A stretch of 64,000 nucleotides of DNA from an uncultured Solirubrobacterales bacterium (GTDB lineage Bacteria > Actinomycetota > Thermoleophilia > Solirubrobacterales > Thermoleophilaceae), in contig CAWGTP010000006.1 of assembly GCA_963825535.1 (NCBI GenBank), positions 183,507-247,506 of the forward strand. Direction: 5' to 3'. The position numbers and the translations under genes are program-made. Shown piece after piece: positions 17,563 through 25,383 of this stretch. How positions within the stretch are numbered: position 1 is the first letter of the stretch; each line of letters opens with the position of its first letter. The notes beneath the pieces were generated by a model, which worked only from the letters and a program-made list of their open reading frames with translations, did not search any database and was not told the origin of the DNA.

Positions 17563-19224
17563 CTACTTCAGGCAGAACTGGGTCCAGTCGTTCTTGTAGA
17601 CCGGGTGGATGCCCGCACAGTTCTCGAAGTCCATCCGCTCGGAGAAGAACGTCGTGGCCTCCTCGTAGCCGTAGGGCACGAGGTAGGCCTTGTCCTTGAC
17701 CACGTACTCGTCCAGCGCGCCCCACTCCGGAGCTGCCTTCTCGAGGTCGGGCTGCTGGACCAGGTCCTCGGACTTCTTGTTCAGCGTCGCGTCGTTGACG
17801 AAGCCCTGGTTGCTTGTCGGGGTCGACTGGAGCGAATCCCCGGTGAGCAGCGGCTGGAAGAAGTCGGCCGGGTGCGGGAAGTCCTGGTACCAGTCCGTGA
17901 ACCCGGTCTGGGCCTTGGACGACTTCGTGCCGATCCGGTCGAAGTAGACCTGCTGGTCCAGCGTCTTGATCTTGGTCTTGTAGCCGATGTCCTCGAGCAC
18001 GCCGGCGTAGTAGACCGCGATCTTGTCGCGCGGGCTCTTGTTGTTGGTCCAGACCGTGACCTGCTGGCCCTTGGTGCCGGACTTCTCGACCAACTCCTTG
18101 GCCTTCGCCACGTCGCCGGGACCGTCCGGGTCGCCGTAGGGGCACTTGAAGTCCTTGTACCCCACGAGCTGCGGCGGCAGGAACGTGCAGCCGGGCTCCA
18201 GCCGGCCGCCGAAGATGCGCACCAGGGCGCGCGAGTCGATTGCGTAGTTCACCGCCTGGCGGGCCTCCAGCTTGTTGAAGGGCGCCATCGTGACGTTGAG
18301 GAAGAAGTAGTACGTGTTGGGCGGGTTCGCGTCCTCGCGGATCCGGTCCTTGTACTTGGACCGCACCTGCGGGAGCAGGTTGCCCGACGGATCCTCGGTG
18401 GAGAAGTCGAGCTTGCCGCTGATCACGTCCTGGGTCTGGCGCTCGACCGAGTCGGACACCTCGCCGTTGACCTTGTCGACCTTGCCCTTCTCCACGCCAG
18501 GAACGTTGAAGTTCTTGTTCTTGGTCAGCACGAACTTCTTGGACGGGTCGATCACTTTGATCGTGTACGGCCCCGCGCCGATCGGCGGGTTCTTGGTCAT
18601 GTCCTCAATCGGCGAGCTGGACGCCTTCACCGGCGCCGCGTAGGCCACCGACTGGGCGAACGGGAACTTGCCGTCGGGCGCCTTGAGGGTGATCGCGATC
18701 TTGCCGGTCTTGTCGTCGGTCTCGATGCCCGAGATGTCGTTCGAGGCCTTCGGGTCCTCCTGGAACTCCTCGGCGCCCTCGATGCCGGTGAAGAACGAGC
18801 TGTAGGGGCCCTTCTGGCCCACCGTCCGCTTGATCGCGTGCTCGTAGTCACTGGCCTTGACCGGCGAGCCGTCGGAGAAGTTGACGCCCTTCTTGAGCGT
18901 GTAGGTGTAGGTCTTGCCGCCGTTGGTGACCTTCGGCAAATCGGCCAGGCCGGGCACGATCTCACCGCCGCCCTTGCCCTCCTTCGGGGCGTACTTGGTC
19001 AGCGGAAGGTAGACCGGCGAGAGGGCCTGGCTGGCCTGCACGGTCTGGAACAGGGACGGGTCGTAGGAGTCGGGACCGACTGTGCCGATGTTGATCGTGC
19101 CGCCGCTCTTGCCCGAGCCGCCACCCGATGACTCGTCATCGCTGCCCCCTCCACAGGCTGTGATGCCGAGCGCCGCCACAGCGGTCCCGGCCACTACTGC
19201 GAGAAGACTGCGATACCTCGTCAT
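17563..19224 (-). CDS. ABC transporter substrate-binding lipoprotein, family 5 (peptide/nickel type)
   Basis: Lipobox LGITAC after a signal peptide. Family-5 SBP length and motifs. GGAGGG lies 9 nt upstream of ATG 19224, which is preferred over ATG 19251. Confidence 0.88.
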   Translation of the reverse strand: MTRYRSLLAVVAGTAVAALGITACGGGSDDESSGGGSGKSGGTINIGTVGPDSYDPSLFQTVQASQALSPVYLPLTKYAPKEGKGGGEIVPGLADLPKVTNGGKTYTYTLKKGVNFSDGSPVKASDYEHAIKRTVGQKGPYSSFFTGIEGAEEFQEDPKASNDISGIETDDKTGKIAITLKAPDGKFPFAQSVAYAAPVKASSSPIEDMTKNPPIGAGPYTIKVIDPSKKFVLTKNKNFNVPGVEKGKVDKVNGEVSDSVERQTQDVISGKLDFSTEDPSGNLLPQVRSKYKDRIREDANPPNTYYFFLNVTMAPFNKLEARQAVNYAIDSRALVRIFGGRLEPGCTFLPPQLVGYKDFKCPYGDPDGPGDVAKAKELVEKSGTKGQQVTVWTNNKSPRDKIAVYYAGVLEDIGYKTKIKTLDQQVYFDRIGTKSSKAQTGFTDWYQDFPHPADFFQPLLTGDSLQSTPTSNQGFVNDATLNKKSEDLVQQPDLEKAAPEWGALDEYVVKDKAYLVPYGYEEATTFFSERMDFENCAGIHPVYKNDWTQFCLK

Positions 19225-19311
19225 ACTTAGATTCCCTCCGGTCCTAGACATCCTCCACCCGACGGCGGGACAAGTTACTCCTTTTCGCGCCCGGCGGAGA
19301 TTGCCTGCAAA

Positions 19312-20823
19312 TCAGGACAGGCAGAGGCTCGAGAAGTCGAGCCCGTACACCGGGTGGAAGCGCAGGCACTGGTCCGGGTCGAGGCGCTCGGACAGCAGCA
19401 CGCCGGTCGTGCGGAGGCCGAACGGGACGATCAGCGCGCCCTCCACGACGTCGCGGTCGAGCGCCGCCCAGCGCGGGCCCTTGGGCGTGTCGCTGTCGCG
19501 CTCCAGCGCCCCCACGTCGCTACGCACGCCCGCGTCCGTGACCACGTCCAGGTACCGCCCCGGGACCGGCATGCTCGGCGTTACCGCGTCGAACCGCAGC
19601 TGCGCGCGCGATCGCTCGCGGTCGGTGCGCGCCCGCCGGGCGCGCAGGCCGATCTTGCGGAGCACGTCGACCCCGTAGCGTGCCAGCGCGACGGCGCGCG
19701 GGCCCTCGCCGCCGTCCACCAGGACGCGTGCGTCGCGGTCACTCGAGGCGCGGACGAGCCGCTCCGCGCGCACGAGATCGGAATCGCCGTCGCGGGCGCC
19801 GTAGGGGCACGGGTCGAGCTCCACGTAGCCGGGCACCTGAGGTGGGATCGCGTTGCACGTCGAGGACAGGAAACCGTCCTCGAGCCGGGCCAGCGCGCGC
19901 AGGTCGAGCGCGAACGCCACCGCGCGGCGGGTGTCCTGGTCGGTGAACGGCGGCCGGTCGAGGTCGAACGCGACGTAGCGCGAGGTCAGCGTCGGGAACT
20001 CGCGGTAGCGCGACTTGTACTCGGACCGGATCTGCGGCAACCGCTCGACCGGCGGCTCGCCCTGGGTCACGTCCAGGAGGCCGGAAAGCGTCTGGCTGGT
20101 GCGGCGGGCGTCGTCGCCGACGAAGCTGCCGGCGACCGAGTCCACATTGCCGGCGGGCACGCCGGGGAGCCGGAAGCCGCGGCGGCGGGTCAGCACGTAG
20201 GCCCGGCCACGCGTGGGCGCCTCGAGCCGGTACGGGCCAACGCCGACGACCGGGGCGCGGGTCAGGTCGCGCGTGGGTGTGCCGGGCGGCACGGGCGCGG
20301 TCCACAGCGTCGCCAGCAGGTCGGGGAACTCGGGGTCGGGCACGCTCAGGGTGATGCGCACCTCGCGCCTGCGCTCGTCGGCCGCGACGCTCTCGATGTT
20401 GGCCAGCGCGCTCCGGGCCGCGCGGTTGAGCGCCCGCGACCGCCTGATCGCGCGGCCCACGTCCGCGGCCAGCACCGTGCGGCCGTCGGAATAGCTGAGG
20501 TCCTTACGCAGCGTGAAGGTGAACTCGCGCTTCTCGTCGTCGGCCTCGGGCGCCGACTCGGCCAGCCCCGGGACCAACTGGGTGCCCGCGGCGCCCTCGG
20601 CGCGGCGGTAGGTCATCGGCGGCGTGTAGGCCAGCCAGAGCGCCCGTAGCGCCACCGGGGAACGCGCGAGCGCGGGATCGAGCGAGTCGGGACGCTCCCC
20701 GAGGCCGACCAGCACGCTGCCGCCCTCGCGCGCGTCGCCGCGCTCGCCGGTGATGCCGGACTCACACCCGGCAGACGCCGCGAGCAGGCACGCCAGCGTC
20801 CCTGCGATCGCGCCGTTTCTCAC
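19312..20823 (-). CDS. second family-5 substrate-binding lipoprotein (paralog of 17563-19224)
   Basis: Lipobox AASAGC. It shares with the neighbour the Cys-containing blocks PPQ(L/V)xGY...CPYG and SER(M/L)D...C...HPVY...CL. ATGA overlap with the sigma factor gene. Confidence 0.8.
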   Translation of the reverse strand: MRNGAIAGTLACLLAASAGCESGITGERGDAREGGSVLVGLGERPDSLDPALARSPVALRALWLAYTPPMTYRRAEGAAGTQLVPGLAESAPEADDEKREFTFTLRKDLSYSDGRTVLAADVGRAIRRSRALNRAARSALANIESVAADERRREVRITLSVPDPEFPDLLATLWTAPVPPGTPTRDLTRAPVVGVGPYRLEAPTRGRAYVLTRRRGFRLPGVPAGNVDSVAGSFVGDDARRTSQTLSGLLDVTQGEPPVERLPQIRSEYKSRYREFPTLTSRYVAFDLDRPPFTDQDTRRAVAFALDLRALARLEDGFLSSTCNAIPPQVPGYVELDPCPYGARDGDSDLVRAERLVRASSDRDARVLVDGGEGPRAVALARYGVDVLRKIGLRARRARTDRERSRAQLRFDAVTPSMPVPGRYLDVVTDAGVRSDVGALERDSDTPKGPRWAALDRDVVEGALIVPFGLRTTGVLLSERLDPDQCLRFHPVYGLDFSSLCLS

Positions 20824-21578
20824 TGCAGCTCGTCGCGCATCGCTCCGAGCGCCTTGCGGATCAGGCGCGACACGTGCATCTGGGAAAGCCCGACGCGCTC
20901 GGCGATCTGCGTCTGGGGCAGGCCCTCCTCGAAGCGCATGCGCAGGATCTCCTGCTCGCGCGAGGGCAGGTGGGCCAGCGCCGGCGCCAGCGAAGCGCGG
21001 TCCTCGCTACGCGAGAACTCCTCGTCCTCGTGACCCAGGCTCTCCAGCGGATCGGACTCCCCCTCCGTGGTCGGCCCGGACGAGAGCGACAGCGTGGTGT
21101 ATGCGCTCCCGACCTCGAGCGCCTCCAGTACCTCCTCGGGCGTGGTGGCCAGCTCGGCGGCGATCTCGGCCACGCTGGGCGAGCGGCCCAGCCGCGAGGT
21201 CAGCCGGTCGATCGTGGCCGACATCCGGGCGTTGAGCTCCTGGAGCGCGCGCGGTACCCGGATCGCCCACCCCTTGTCGCGGAAGTGACGCTTGATCTCG
21301 CCCACGACCGTCGGTGTGGCGTAGGTGGCCAGTGAAACCTCACGGCCCAGCTCGAAGCGGTCGATCGCCTTGATCAGGCCGATCGCGCCGACCTGCTCGA
21401 TGTCCTCGAGCGACTCGCCCCGGCCCGAGTAGCGGCGGGCCAGCGACCGCACCAGCGGCAGGTGGCGCTGCACCAGCCGCTCGCGGGCGGACTCGTCGCC
21501 ATCCTCGTGCAGGCGGCGCAGCAGCTCGCGGTCGACCTCGCGCGCCCGCGCCCGCGCCGTGTCGACCTCTCCCCTCAT
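20820..21578 (-). CDS. RNA polymerase sigma factor, SigB/SigF/SigG-like (sigma-70 group 3)
   Basis: Region 2 (DIEQVGAIGLIKAIDRF, YATPTVVGEIKRHFRD), region 3, and region 4.2 HTH (TQIAERVGLSQMHVSRLIRKAL). Confidence 0.88.
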   Translation of the reverse strand: MRGEVDTARARAREVDRELLRRLHEDGDESARERLVQRHLPLVRSLARRYSGRGESLEDIEQVGAIGLIKAIDRFELGREVSLATYATPTVVGEIKRHFRDKGWAIRVPRALQELNARMSATIDRLTSRLGRSPSVAEIAAELATTPEEVLEALEVGSAYTTLSLSSGPTTEGESDPLESLGHEDEEFSRSEDRASLAPALAHLPSREQEILRMRFEEGLPQTQIAERVGLSQMHVSRLIRKALGAMRDELQ

Positions 21579-21955
21579 ACTGCGACCAGCTTCACCAGCC
21601 GGATGAACAGCCGGCCGTCGCCGGCTTCCTCGACGCCGTAGGAGTCGACGACGGTGTCCAGCACGCCCGCCAGGCTGAGCGCGCCGTGCTCGCGCTCGCG
21701 CTGGAGCGCGTCGGCAAGGCCGCGTTCGAGCAGCGGCCCGACGCGCACCCTCACGCGTCCGGGCGACAGCTCGAAGCCGATCGTCAGCCGCTCCTGGCCT
21801 CCGGACTCGGCGTACAGGCGCTCGATGGCCAGCTGGAGATCGTCCATCTCCTCGAATCCGAGCTCCGCGCCGGCGGCGATGCCGCCGACGATCAGGCGGA
21901 CGACCGAGCCGAAGTCCCCGCCCAGCGGCGCCTCGAGGACGATCCGGTCAGGCAT
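21575..21955 (-). CDS. RsbW/SpoIIAB-like anti-sigma factor candidate lacking ATP-binding residues
   Basis: 126 aa. By eye it aligns to B. subtilis RsbW (VVRLIVGGIAAG...FEEMDDLQLAIERLYAES vs IIRLTLSGVASR...YDEIEDLKIAVSEACTNAV). The N-box Asn and the G1/G2 glycines are absent. 4-nt overlap with the sigma gene. Confidence 0.55.
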   Translation of the reverse strand: MPDRIVLEAPLGGDFGSVVRLIVGGIAAGAELGFEEMDDLQLAIERLYAESGGQERLTIGFELSPGRVRVRVGPLLERGLADALQREREHGALSLAGVLDTVVDSYGVEEAGDGRLFIRLVKLVAV

Positions 21956-23393
21956 CGACGTCCCTCATCGTCCCCCAGCCTACGACCAGGTCGCCGTCCA
22001 TCAGGCACGCCGTCTGCCCGGGCGCCGGCCGCGCGACCTCGCGCGCGAGGTCGATCCGCGCGCCGCCGGCGACAGTGCACGCCACAGCAGGCGCGTGGTA
22101 GCGCAGGCGCACGCTGCCGGCGCGTGTGGCCGGCCGGTGCAGCACGAGCGGGTCGACAGCGACCGAACGCACCGCCAGCTCGGCGCGCGTGCCCACCACA
22201 ACGCGGTTGGCACCGGGGTCCTTGGCCAGCACGTAAAGCGGCTCGCGCGCCGCGACCCCGATGCCGCGGCGCTGGCCCACGGTGAAGCGGTGGTGCCCGT
22301 CGTGCTCGCCGAGCACGGTCCCGTCACGGTCCACGATCGCGCCCGCACGCGGCTGCGGCGCCCCGTGCCGGAGCATGAAGTCGGGCCCGTTCGTGCCCGC
22401 CAGAAAGCACAGGTCCTGGCTCTCGGGCTTTCGTGCGACCGGTAGGCCGGCCGCGCCCGCCAGCTCGCGCACGCGCGGCTTCTCGAGCTCGCCGAGCGGG
22501 AAGCGCATCCGCTCGAGCTCGTCCCCGGTCAGCCGCGCCAGCACATAGCTCTGGTCCTTGGCGGGGTCGGCGCCGGCGCGCACGAGCGCGCCCGCATCGT
22601 CCTCGGCGATGCGCGCGTAGTGCCCGGTCGCCAGCCGCGCCGCGCCAAGATCGCCGGCCAGCGCGAGCATCGCGTCGAAGCGCACCAGGCCGTTGCAGCG
22701 CACGCATGGGTTGGGCGTCGTGCCCTGGGCGTAGCCGGCCAGGAAGTCGTCTACTACGTCGGCGCGAAAGCGGTCGCGCAGGTCGAGCGTGAAGTGTGCG
22801 ATGCCCATCCGGTGGGCCAGCGCGCGGGCGCCGGTGACCGCCTGCGGCGAGCAGCAGCTCTTGTCGCCGTCCGTGCCGGGGTCGGACCAGAGCTCGAGGG
22901 TGACCGCCAGCACGTGCTCGCCCGCGTCCAGCGCCAGCTGCGCGGCGGCGGCACTGTCGACTCCGCCGCTCATGGCCACCAGCGTGCGGGTGGCCACGGC
23001 GGGGAGGGCGATGGCGCCGTCGCGCGCCGCCAAGCCCAGCGCGCGGTGCAGCGCATCGGCGGCCAGCTCGGCCGCGTGCGTGCCGGCGGGCGACAGGCCG
23101 CCCAGCTCGTCCGCCACCGCGGCGGGCGTTACGGCCGCCGCGTCCAGCACCGGCACGCCCTCCACCAGCTCGACCACCGCGCTGCCCGCGGCGCGCGCGG
23201 CGGCACAGCCCTCGGCCTGGTAGCCGGCGGCGGCCACGCGGTCGCCCTCGACCTGGACCGAGACCCGGATCAGGTCACCGCAGGCGGCGCCGCCGGCAGC
23301 GCCGGTGTGGGGCGCGCGGGCCAGCGCCCCGAGCCCGCGCGGGGACGCGAGGTGCTCGTGCAGCGCTGACGCCGGGTTGGCGGTGCGGGCCAT
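21948..23393 (-). CDS. mnmA: IscU/NifU-N-like domain fused to tRNA 2-thiouridine(34) synthase MnmA
   Basis: N-terminal ~125 aa: GGAACGDLIRVSV, YQAEGCAAARAAGSAV, THAAELAADAL (IscU-like). Then PP-loop AMSGGVDSAAAA, NPCVRCN and ESQDLCF (MnmA). ATG 23393 was chosen because codons further upstream drop to about 68% GC3. Confidence 0.85.
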   Translation of the reverse strand: MARTANPASALHEHLASPRGLGALARAPHTGAAGGAACGDLIRVSVQVEGDRVAAAGYQAEGCAAARAAGSAVVELVEGVPVLDAAAVTPAAVADELGGLSPAGTHAAELAADALHRALGLAARDGAIALPAVATRTLVAMSGGVDSAAAAQLALDAGEHVLAVTLELWSDPGTDGDKSCCSPQAVTGARALAHRMGIAHFTLDLRDRFRADVVDDFLAGYAQGTTPNPCVRCNGLVRFDAMLALAGDLGAARLATGHYARIAEDDAGALVRAGADPAKDQSYVLARLTGDELERMRFPLGELEKPRVRELAGAAGLPVARKPESQDLCFLAGTNGPDFMLRHGAPQPRAGAIVDRDGTVLGEHDGHHRFTVGQRRGIGVAAREPLYVLAKDPGANRVVVGTRAELAVRSVAVDPLVLHRPATRAGSVRLRYHAPAVACTVAGGARIDLAREVARPAPGQTACLMDGDLVVGWGTMRDVDA

Positions 23394-23628
23394 GCGCTGA
23401 GGATACGAACGCAACGCGGTCGCTGACACCTTTGTTGCGGGCTCCAGCTTGCCGCTGCCGGCTCTGGGTTGGGCCTGCGTTGGTGCAAGCTCGGGAGTCC
23501 CCCGGAACGAACCTGGCGGCGAAACGCCTGGCTGACCCTGAGACAGGACTCCCATCCCATTGGTGTTGGCTCAACGTGGTGAGCCGGCTGGCGTACAAGC
23601 TCGAGCCTCAGCTCAACGTAGCAGCGGC

Positions 23629-25383
23629 TCAGGTGCCCGGGGGGGCGAGCAGCTTCAGGCCGAGCTCTCTCAGCTGCGCCTCCTCGACCGGCGCCGGCCC
23701 GCCGGTCAGCGGATCGAAGCCACTGGCCGTCTTGGGGAAGGCGATCACATCTCGAATGGTCTCGCAACCGGCCAGGAGCGCCACGATCCGGTCGATGCCG
23801 AAGGCCACGCCTCCGTGCGGTGGGGCCCCGTAGGTCAGCGCGTCCAGCAGGAAGCCGAACCGCTCCTTGGCCTGCTCGGGCGACAGGCCGAGCACGTCGA
23901 AGACCTGTTGCTGCAGCTCGGGCGTGTTGATGCGGATCGACCCGCCGCCGATCTCGGCGCCGTTCCAGACCATGTCGTAGGCGCGGCTGCGCCACGTGCC
24001 GGGGTCCGCGTCCAGGTCGCCGCTCGGCGCGGTGAACGGGTGGTGCATCGGGTCCCAGCGCTTCTCCGCCTCGTCCCACTCGAACATCGGGAAGTCGACG
24101 ACCCAGAGGAAGTCGTCGCGGGCCTCGGGCACTCCCACCTGGAGCCGCAGGTCACCCAGCACGCGGGCCGCCGTCGCGGCCGTGTCGGCCACCACGAGGA
24201 TCGCATCGCCCTCGACGGCGCCTGTGGCCCGCTTGAGCCCCGCGATCTCGTCCTCGGACAGGAACTTGGCCACCGGTGAGCGCCACTGGTCGGGCTCGAC
24301 CACGCCCCAGACCAGGCCTTTCGCGCCGAACCGCTTGGCGCGCTCGGTCAGCTCGTCGAACTGCTTGCGCGTGAAGTCACCCGGCGCCGCGAACCCGCGG
24401 ACCACCCCGCCCGAGCCCAGCGCGCCGCTGAACACCTTGAACTCCGACGACGCGAACAGCTCGCCGAGGTCGGCGATCTCGAACGGGATCCGGCGGTCGG
24501 GCCGGTCGCTGCCGTAGCGCAGCATCGCCTCGTCGTAGCCGATCCGCTCGACCGGATCCGGCACCTCGACGCCACCCAGCGCCAGTACTGCGCGCATGAG
24601 CGGATCGATCGTGGCGATCACGTCGTCCTCGTCCACGAACGCCAGCTCCACGTCCAGCTGGGTGAACTCGGGCAGCCGGTCGGCGCGCGAGGACTCGTCG
24701 CGGAAGCAGCGGGCGATCTGGTAGTAGCGCTCGAAGCCGGCGATCATCAGCAGCTGCTTGAAGATCTGCGGTGACTGCGGCAGCGCGTAGACCGATCCGG
24801 GCGCCACACGGCTGGGCACCAGGAAGTCGCGCGCGCCCTCGGGCGTGGAGCGCGTGAGCACGGGTGTCTCGATCTCCAGGAAGCCGCGGTCCTCGAGGTG
24901 GCGGCGGATGGCCGATACGACCCGGTGGCGCAGCCGGATCGCCGTGGCCATCCGCTCCTTGCGCAGGTCGAGGTAGCGGTACTGGAGCCGAAGCTCCTCG
25001 GACACCGCGTCGTCCTCGTCGATCTGGAAGGGCGGCGTCCGGGCCGTGGCCAGCAGGTCGAACTGCTCGACATTCAGCTCAACGCCGCCGGTGGGCAGCT
25101 CGGGGTTGACCGCGCCCGCCTCGCGCTCCAGCAGCGTTCCGGTGGCCGAGACGACGTGCTCGGGCCGCAGCCGGTGGGCGGCGGCGTGGGCGTCGGGGAA
25201 CTCGTCGGGGCGGAAGACCAGCTGGAGCAGGCCCTCACGGTCGCGCAGGTCGATGAAGATCAGCCCACCGTGATCGCGGCGGCGGTGCACCCAGCCGGCC
25301 ACGCGCAACCTCGAGCCCACCTGCTGCGGCGTGGCCAGGCCACACCACGTGTCGCGGTAGCGGTTGGCGAACGTTTCGGTCAC
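23629..25383 (-). CDS. aspS: aspartate--tRNA ligase
   Basis: 584 aa. OB-fold N-terminus (RVAGWVHRRRDHGGLIFIDLRD), class II motifs (FRDESSRADRLPEFTQLD, GGGSIRI, GVAFGIDR) and the bacterial insertion domain. Confidence 0.95.
   Translation of the reverse strand: MTETFANRYRDTWCGLATPQQVGSRLRVAGWVHRRRDHGGLIFIDLRDREGLLQLVFRPDEFPDAHAAAHRLRPEHVVSATGTLLEREAGAVNPELPTGGVELNVEQFDLLATARTPPFQIDEDDAVSEELRLQYRYLDLRKERMATAIRLRHRVVSAIRRHLEDRGFLEIETPVLTRSTPEGARDFLVPSRVAPGSVYALPQSPQIFKQLLMIAGFERYYQIARCFRDESSRADRLPEFTQLDVELAFVDEDDVIATIDPLMRAVLALGGVEVPDPVERIGYDEAMLRYGSDRPDRRIPFEIADLGELFASSEFKVFSGALGSGGVVRGFAAPGDFTRKQFDELTERAKRFGAKGLVWGVVEPDQWRSPVAKFLSEDEIAGLKRATGAVEGDAILVVADTAATAARVLGDLRLQVGVPEARDDFLWVVDFPMFEWDEAEKRWDPMHHPFTAPSGDLDADPGTWRSRAYDMVWNGAEIGGGSIRINTPELQQQVFDVLGLSPEQAKERFGFLLDALTYGAPPHGGVAFGIDRIVALLAGCETIRDVIAFPKTASGFDPLTGGPAPVEEAQLRELGLKLLAPPGT

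Follow-up and report, generated by a model that had tools for sequence, protein, structure and literature searches.

An IscU-type domain fused in frame to a C-type MnmA in Thermoleophilia and Rubrobacteraceae

A 64,000-nucleotide stretch of DNA from an uncultured soil bacterium of the Solirubrobacterales, family Thermoleophilaceae (the window; contig CAWGTP010000006.1 of assembly GCA_963825535.1) contains on its minus strand a gene, 21948-23393, in which an IscU/NifU_N-type domain is joined to a complete MnmA in a single polypeptide of 481 amino acids (aa) plus stop codon. The gene is defined by the list of open reading frames (ORFs) and by Pfam and NCBIfam matches, and is the sole MnmA match found in this genome. 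Judged by its signature, the gene product is the cell's tRNA 2-thiouridine(34) synthase, of the iron-sulfur (Fe-S)-dependent C-type. MnmA and its C-type subclass are already known, and what appears to be new is the fusion of an IscU-type domain to a C-type MnmA. Databases label hundreds of these fused proteins plainly as MnmA. An initial annotation of the window had proposed the fusion and knew of no characterisation of it, and we likewise found no description of an IscU-MnmA fusion in the literature searched, which covered few subscription journals.

Domain structure and reading frame of the fused gene

The gene begins with an ATG at 23393 (MARTANP...) and ends with the stop codon at 21948-21950. 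The longest possible version of the ORF would start at 23555 and encode 535 aa. The ATG at 23393 was taken as the start because homologues are 481-482 aa in length and Met1-Ala2 is kept in 93% of close relatives. The IscU/NifU_N-type domain occupies residues 12-119 (23037-23360, minus strand, as for all features of the gene), and is supported by Pfam NifU_N (PF01592, E = 6.8e-22, 78.4 bits against a cut-off of 22), by the solved IscU chain 4eb5_C and by Foldseek. It is followed by a junction of residues 120-135 (22989-23036), delimited from the secondary structure of an AlphaFold model, and by MnmA proper, residues 136-481 (21951-22988), which comprises a PP-loop HUP domain, a PRC barrel and a C-terminal barrel.

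Within the MnmA part, Pfam matched tRNA_Me_trans at residues 136-332 (E = 2e-61), a PRC-barrel domain at residues 339-401, and the C-terminal barrel at residues 425-475, the last with 20.3 bits, slightly below its cut-off of 20.6. The MnmA equivalog NF001138 of NCBIfam scored 330.3 bits against a cut-off of 284 over residues 137-475, and the MnmA model TIGR00420 scored 264.8 bits against 236.95. Solved MnmA structures matched this part at 1.7e-56. Both halves named in the initial annotation are thus recovered by profile hidden Markov models.

The reading frame is unbroken over the junction in 120 of the 120 best database homologues, which are 66-94% identical to the fusion and of the same length, and nearly all of which contain both PF01592 and PF03054. 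A continuous frame was also present in 120 Rubrobacteraceae proteins. A tblastn search of named species genomes returned a single in-frame match, extending from about residue 10 to 476, at roughly 60 loci of Thermoleophilaceae, Solirubrobacterales, Solirubrobacteraceae and Gaiellales. More than 200 homologues from Thermoleophilia and Rubrobacteraceae share this unbroken frame, and the fusion therefore does not stem from an assembly error. The alternative of two separate genes was likewise rejected, the frame being unbroken in hundreds of independent assemblies; with no stop or frameshift between the domains in the homologues compared, the gene is a true in-frame IscU-like/MnmA fusion. Scattered frameshifts elsewhere in the gene were seen in a few nanopore-derived metagenome-assembled genomes (loci L019, L022, L062 and others).

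An AlphaFold2 model based on a 72-sequence alignment had a predicted local distance difference test (pLDDT) score of 93.6 and a predicted template modelling (pTM) score of 0.91. In the model, a short connector joins the long C-terminal helix of the IscU fold (residues 102-124) to the first PP-loop strand (residues 133-140), with pLDDT of 96-98 at the junction, and the two domains are predicted to form one rigid body. In Foldseek comparisons, the MnmA half aligned to 2hma and 2det with template modelling (TM) scores of 0.85-0.86. The N-terminal half aligned to IscU structures with TM scores of 0.78-0.84 (root-mean-square deviation 1.6-2.3 Å), and to SufU with merely 0.57-0.67. No solved chain spanning both halves was present among the Foldseek matches.

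Sequence motifs of the MnmA part and the N-terminal domain

The PP-loop SGGVDS (residues 142-147, 22953-22970), which is the ATP-binding/adenylation motif, is present in the MnmA part, and its columns S142 to S147 are invariant. The CC-CxxC-C motif defines C-type MnmA, and the Thermus thermophilus C-type enzyme needs a [4Fe-4S] cluster (PMC7025502). The initial annotation had recognized the CxxC in this MnmA, which proves to be part of a complete signature. It consists of Cys180-Cys181 (22851-22856), the 'CC' of the motif, Cys230-Val-Arg-Cys233 within NPCVRCN (22695-22706), providing two of the three presumed [4Fe-4S] ligands, and Cys329 within QDLCF (22407-22409), the third cysteine of CxxC...C. 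All of these residues are invariant in all fusions examined.

In the N-terminal domain, two of the three ligand cysteines of IscU are kept and the third is replaced, as had been read at the outset. The first lies in Cys38-Gly39-Asp40 (CGD, within AACGD; 23274-23282, with the tgc of Cys38 at 23282-23280 and gac for Asp40) and the second is Cys63 (tgt, within EGCAA; 23205-23207), invariant in the 72 aligned fusions. At the His-Cys position of IscU, the fusion has His106-Ala107 (cac gcg, 23073-23078), as is also seen in the alignment and in a table of species compiled for this site. The best solved relative of the domain is Archaeoglobus fulgidus IscU (4eb5_C, 1.6e-19), whose HC aligns with HA of the fusion. 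Ala107 falls exactly on the third ligand cysteine of solved IscU structures, and the alignment is gap-free there. Ahead of the His-Cys, IscU proteins such as that of E. coli carry LPPVK, a chaperone-binding motif. This motif is missing from the N-terminal domain, where GGLSPAGTH stands in its place. The position of Cys38 corresponds to Cys37 of IscU and to Cys40/41 of SufU, the first cysteine and persulfide acceptor of the latter protein (PMC10216065).

That the N-terminal domain would match IscU/NifU profiles was true of the Pfam NifU_N family, where it lies far above the cut-off, but not of the equivalog models of scaffolds, where it falls far below: TIGR03419 gave 77.3 bits against a cut-off of 187.9, TIGR01999 gave 52.9 against 192.4, and the NifU equivalog TIGR02000 gave 59.4 against 273.3. 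Assignment of the domain to SufU was considered and rejected. The hallmarks of SufU are an insertion of 18-23 residues between the second and third Cys, and a Lys replacing the IscU His (PMC10216065). In the fusion, Cys63 and His106 are 43 residues apart, the same spacing as in IscU, such that the insertion is missing; the residue is His and not Lys; and the SufU model TIGR01994 scored 37.4 bits against a cut-off of 92.5.

Cysteine desulfurases in the genome

Two NifU_N matches are present in this genome (3.16 Mb, 93.7% complete), namely the fusion and a canonical SufU adjoining SufS. This SufS is of type II, with the motif RAGHHCAQP. In a tblastn search with NifS, the only matches were a Cys-less class-V enzyme and, as a cross-match, SufS (residues 6-228, 31% identity), and a PF00266 scan agreed in finding no NifS/IscS, an absence that is unproven at this completeness. 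The best NifS match was likewise merely a SufS cross-hit in 11 of the 11 genomes of the order searched, this one included. By these searches, SufS is apparently the sole cysteine desulfurase of the cell. The Cys loop of type II desulfurases is short and rigid, and their sulfur is normally passed to a SufE or SufU acceptor (PMC10216065). A true NifS is present in Rubrobacteraceae and in the families numbered f5, f6 and f8 in our survey, and f7 is without NifS.

The N-terminal domain therefore has a NifU_N domain and an IscU fold, with conserved Asp and His, but it departs from a canonical scaffold, because the third Cys and the LPPVK motif are missing, no NifS/IscS partner was found in this or the other genomes searched in the order, and the equivalog scores fall short.

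Two further matches in the genome were examined and set aside. A second class-V aminotransferase on contig C4, the one further enzyme of that class of any size, was rejected as a hidden IscS, its catalytic Cys loop being deleted. This protein of 356 aa with a class-V aminotransferase fold (C4:24974-25771; locus L004 1312-2382, minus strand), which lies outside the window, keeps the region of the pyridoxal phosphate lysine. A third IscU-like match (C6:59948-60058) is a chance match within a RelA/SpoT-type protein.

Occurrence and origin of the fusion

To describe the spread of the fusion, which the initial annotation had left to a survey, 400 genomes sampled from the phylum were searched. MnmA was present in nearly all of them. 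Matches to both domains were found in f1-f3, which belong to the window's own order, in f4-f6 from the rest of the class, in f19 (Rubrobacteraceae), and in f58, f78 and f21. The fusion is thus widespread in Thermoleophilia and Rubrobacteraceae, and occurs in f21, f58 and f78 in addition.

In f32, another actinobacterial family, the two parts are encoded by separate adjacent genes in the order rrf2-cysK-cysE-nifS-iscU-mnmA, an arrangement that preserves the ancestral state. The free IscU of this family is canonical (126 aa), with Cys, Asp, Cys and His-Cys. The fused gene of Rubrobacteraceae is preceded by nifS, with 25-50 bp between the two. Because of this separate-gene cluster and the nifS directly upstream in Rubrobacteraceae, gene order indicates that the fusion arose from the adjoining iscU and mnmA of a nifS-iscU-mnmA cluster. 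The hisS-aspS-mnmA neighbourhood is kept throughout the class. A cysteine desulfurase was looked for beside the divergent metagenomic fusions, and none was found at those loci.

A maximum-likelihood tree of the MnmA domain was constructed from a subsample of 74 rows, in which every third unfused representative was taken. All Thermoleophilia and Rubrobacteraceae fell in one clade (support 98/97), with the stub-bearing or unfused sequences of Gaiellaceae and f7 nested within it. The fusion is therefore ancestral in that clade, with later erosion in some of its lineages. The fused sequences of f21, f58 and f78 formed a second group beside the unfused f32. The number of fusion events is one or two, and the tree fits either.

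In three f58-like genomes (L091, L099, L100), the strand opposite the fusion encodes, beside it, a ThiI/MnmA-like PP-loop protein of about 340 aa and a member of the 2-thiouracil desulfidase family (PF04463). Together these make up a small thionucleoside-related gene cluster.

State of the IscU-like site across lineages

In the alignment of 72 fusions, the only invariant columns of the N-terminal domain are C38, D40, C63, L110 and D113, and H106 and A107 are each conserved in at least 90% of sequences. IscU and SufU proteins bind zinc readily at this site. Two patterns of ligands were found in the species table. Cys-Asp-Cys-His, with Ala or Gly at the third cysteine position, is present in the window's order, in Rubrobacteraceae and in f4. 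Cys-Asp-Cys-Cys, with the His lost, is present in f58, in f5 and in three Gaiellales-like genomes, and equals the ligand set of SufU. Either way four ligands are retained, so that where the site is kept the sequences leave it four potential ligands, versus five in IscU.

In other lineages the site is further reduced. One or two ligands are left in f21 and f6, the first Cys still being present. In f7 and Gaiellaceae (L114, from f7, at G223:C2; L079, L080 and L090), there is only an N-terminal stub of about 90 residues, or the domain is gone. The stub aligns with the beta-sheet and the C-terminal helix (LAADAL...) of IscU, with both Cys, the Asp and the His lost, and by this alignment resembles a relic of the fused domain.

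Extra cysteines occur near the site in two groups. In Rubrobacteraceae (L095-L098) the sequence reads GCAAC, which places a cysteine at position 66, three residues past the second Cys. In eight species of Solirubrobacterales, Cys-Cys-Asp replaces Cys-Gly-Asp (position 39). These extra cysteines may, from their location, compensate for the lost third cysteine. The loci with Cys-Cys-Asp in this Solirubrobacterales subgroup are L018, L021, L025, L028, L034, L041 and L042.

The mean pairwise identities of the N-terminal and MnmA domains are 0.69 and 0.71 within Thermoleophilaceae, 0.64 and 0.65 within Solirubrobacterales, and 0.44 and 0.47 between Thermoleophilaceae and Rubrobacteraceae. Because conservation of the N-terminal domain is close to that of the MnmA domain, these comparisons point clearly to a domain that is under selection, and not decaying, in this lineage. 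Its initial description as partly degenerate does too little justice to a domain with an invariant Cys38, Asp40 and Cys63 and an almost invariant His106, which moreover evolves about as slowly as MnmA.

Proposed role of the N-terminal domain

We tentatively propose that the N-terminal domain is a cis-acting, metal-binding docking and sulfur-acceptor module that serves the Fe-S-dependent site of MnmA, and consider the chance of this to be somewhat short of even. Cluster building for the cell would be left to SUF, and would no longer be carried out by the fused domain. The conserved Cys38, Asp40, Cys63 and His106 would form a four-ligand metal site. The domain would dock a cysteine desulfurase and accept persulfide sulfur, most likely on Cys38, from which the sulfur would be passed to the MnmA active site at a fixed distance. 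There it might serve as the extra sulfide on the [4Fe-4S] cluster, attacking adenylated U34, or might rebuild a damaged cluster. The donor would be the adjacent NifS in Rubrobacteraceae and, in this organism, SufS, the only desulfurase found. We favour this role because Cys38 stands at the acceptor position of SufU, because type II desulfurases normally need an acceptor, and because of the precedent of plant SufE3, in which the NadA domain alone is inactive in vivo and the SufE domain works with a type II desulfurase (PMC5890173).

Several observations weigh against this proposal. The C-type MnmA of T. thermophilus takes sulfur straight from IscS or SufS in vitro (PMC7025502). The lineages f7 and Gaiellaceae are also without NifS, yet their N-terminal domain is a Cys-free stub or gone, so the module is not strictly necessary where SufS is the only desulfurase. 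In f78, the first Cys is replaced by Asp. Of the two hallmarks of SufU, the insertion and a Lys where IscU has His, the N-terminal domain has neither. Finally, SufS already has its own SufU next door, and its binding by the fused domain is a proposal.

Alternatively, the N-terminal domain may still be an Fe-S scaffold or carrier that delivers a cluster in cis to the CxxC...C of MnmA, which we regard as a serious possibility but on balance rather unlikely. It might hold a [2Fe-2S] cluster, for example on Cys38, Asp40, Cys63 and His106, perhaps completed by a cysteine of a partner or of a second subunit, and might act as a private assembly/repair station for an oxygen-labile enzyme in aerobic actinobacteria. 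In keeping with this, the MnmA part is of the full C-type, which is [4Fe-4S]-dependent in T. thermophilus, and the N-terminal domain descends from a genuine IscU of a nifS-iscU-mnmA cluster. Alongside the two cysteines, conservation extends to His106 and to Asp40, which in IscU is the labilising ligand, and a third thiolate is regained near the site in Rubrobacteraceae (position 66) and in the eight Solirubrobacterales species (position 39). In the A. fulgidus IscS-IscU structure 4eb5, the best structural match of the N-terminal domain, one cluster ligand is reportedly supplied by the partner protein.

Against a scaffold stand the absence of the third cysteine in every member of the order, in Rubrobacteraceae and in f4, the IscU/NifU equivalog scores far under the cut-off, and the failure to find NifS/IscS in the genome or in the order genomes searched. 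Several fused lineages, moreover, drop more ligands or the whole domain and keep the C-type cysteines, so the general SUF machinery can supply the MnmA cluster. The initial annotation had suggested that the attached domain could deliver the cluster or sulfur to the thiolase. Such delivery is possible, but the support for cluster delivery is no stronger than for sulfur relay or for docking of a desulfurase, because the domain departs from a canonical scaffold and MnmA does without the N-terminal domain in the decayed lineages.

A bolder form of this idea is that the N-terminal domain is a built-in assembly/repair station, which would build or rebuild the oxygen-labile [4Fe-4S] cluster of its own MnmA in cis. 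It would draw sulfur from SufS, or from NifS in Rubrobacter, via a two-Cys/His/Asp site unlike those of all studied scaffolds. We think this unlikely. If true, the fusion would be a self-maturing Fe-S enzyme, and would show by a natural example that C-type MnmA depends on its cluster in vivo.

It seems improbable that the domain is a structural remnant, with the IscU fold forming part of the enzyme core by way of its C-terminal helix, packed on the PP-loop domain, and the conserved Cys/Asp/Cys/His holding a structural zinc and playing no role in the traffic of sulfur or clusters. Such a role would agree with the predicted rigid body, in which the IscU helix is continuous into MnmA, with the Cys-free stub of f7 and Gaiellaceae, which keeps mainly the C-terminal helix, with the loss of the partner NifS in this order, and with the common occurrence of zinc at the IscU/SufU site (PMC10216065). 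However, the ligands are the most conserved positions of the domain, whose rate of change over distances between classes is about as low as that of the catalytic part. The alternation between His-only and Cys-only sites and the regained cysteines look like the tuning of a working site, and the domain shrinks where the site is lost, instead of staying.

We give very little credence to a sensor, in which the occupancy of a labile cluster or metal site would report Fe-S, iron or redox status and switch MnmA, coupling wobble thiolation, and hence the translation of Lys, Glu and Gln codons, to stress: an Asp/His-ligated site would be expected to be labile, and the Thermoleophilaceae gene is chained by stop/start overlaps to genes for a putative RsbW-like protein and a SigB/F/G-type sigma factor, but this pair is unlinked to the fusion in most Solirubrobacterales loci, no observation here speaks for regulation specifically, and we know of no example of IscU acting as a sensor within an enzyme.

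The Fe-S dependence of MnmA in vivo, and the route of sulfur to the cluster, are openly disputed (PMC11784392, PMC8053098, PMC7025502). An Fe-S/sulfur-handling domain that is welded to a C-type MnmA, and strongly constrained over two classes of mostly aerobic actinobacteria, bears on this dispute. The lineages provide a natural series of variants, from separate genes to fusions with all ligands, without the third Cys or without the His, and further to a degenerate domain and a stub, and its members come both with and without a partner NifS. Cultured Rubrobacter species carry the fusion, and cultured Solirubrobacterales probably do, so the fusion is directly testable. It could show whether an IscU fold serves as a dedicated sulfur or cluster donor for one client enzyme, and what a two-cysteine IscU site can bind. 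Were the domain merely a structural leftover, it would still offer a clean case of gene-neighbour fusion followed by stepwise decay.

Comparison with known systems

T. thermophilus MnmA (Shigi et al. 2020, PMC7025502) belongs to the same family as the MnmA part of the fusion, and shares with it the CC-CxxC-C signature, the PP-loop and, presumably, [4Fe-4S]-assisted thiolation of U34. It is a stand-alone enzyme, whereas the fusion has about 130 extra N-terminal residues with an IscU fold.

The N-terminal domain resembles IscU and clostridial-type NifU (A. fulgidus 4eb5 and the free IscU of f32) in fold (TM score about 0.8, about 36% identity), in the positions of Cys-Gly-Asp, Gly-Cys and His, and, by descent, in gene neighbourhood. 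It differs from them in having Ala for the third Cys, no LPPVK and a covalently attached MnmA. A type I desulfurase partner was not found in the genome of the fusion, and the equivalog cut-offs are missed.

SufU, the zinc-dependent sulfurtransferase of SufS in Bacillus subtilis and Mycobacterium tuberculosis, belongs to the same fold superfamily and has a four-ligand site with Cys-x-Asp and a second Cys. As with SufU, the fused domain co-occurs with a type II SufS, the only desulfurase found in its genome. Unlike SufU, it is without the 18-23-residue insertion, has His and not Lys, and has lost the third Cys; a canonical SufU is also present in the genome.

In Arabidopsis SufE3 (SufE-NadA), an acceptor of the SufE/IscU fold group is likewise fused N-terminally to a [4Fe-4S] enzyme. 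The enzyme depends on this acceptor domain, whose partner is a type II desulfurase. SufE3 differs in that its acceptor is SufE and not IscU, its enzyme is another and it belongs to another kingdom; its function has been demonstrated, whereas that of the bacterial fusion is a proposal.

The ThiI rhodanese, B. subtilis YrvO-MnmA and the E. coli TusA-TusBCD-TusE relay have the same task, that of supplying a PP-loop tRNA thiolase with persulfide sulfur from a desulfurase. The C-terminal rhodanese of ThiI is a fused persulfide-carrying domain, and follows the same logic as the sulfur-acceptor module proposed above. These systems use rhodanese or Tus folds, or direct contact, and no IscU fold, and their thiolases are regarded as Fe-S-independent or are disputed.

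Sequences adjoining the fused gene

The spacer between aspS and the fused gene (23394-23628, 235 bp) has a lower G+C content, of about 0.69-0.71. No Shine-Dalgarno-like sequence was seen ahead of the ATG of the fusion, and a consensus scan of 19200-23800 for promoters and terminators gave no match. The sequence, read by eye, has a TATCCT hexamer that stops 7 nt short of the ATG and may hint at a leaderless transcript.

Downstream, the fusion is the first of four genes on the minus strand (19312-23393) that are linked into a chain by overlaps between stop and start codons. The stop codon of the fusion (21948-21950) lies within the next gene, which starts with an ATG at 21955. This gene (21575-21955) encodes a putative RsbW-like protein of 126 aa, whose residues 3-45 weakly match the N-terminus of RsbW, an anti-sigma factor (E = 0.001); the protein has no Pfam match and is too short for a full HATPase kinase. 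Its stop codon overlaps at 21578 (ATGA) with the start of a gene for a sigma factor of the SigB/SigF/SigG family (20820-21578; 269.5 bits against a cut-off of 234.35). The stop codon of the sigma factor in turn overlaps with the GTG start, at 20823, of a family-5 solute-binding protein. Such a chain of four overlapping genes suggests, from the arrangement of the codons, translational coupling of unrelated functions.

The pair formed by the 126-aa protein and the sigma factor follows the fused mnmA in all Thermoleophilaceae loci, and is absent from this place in most loci of Solirubrobacterales. The sigma pair is more loosely linked in Rubrobacteraceae, f5, f6 and one Gaiellaceae genome.

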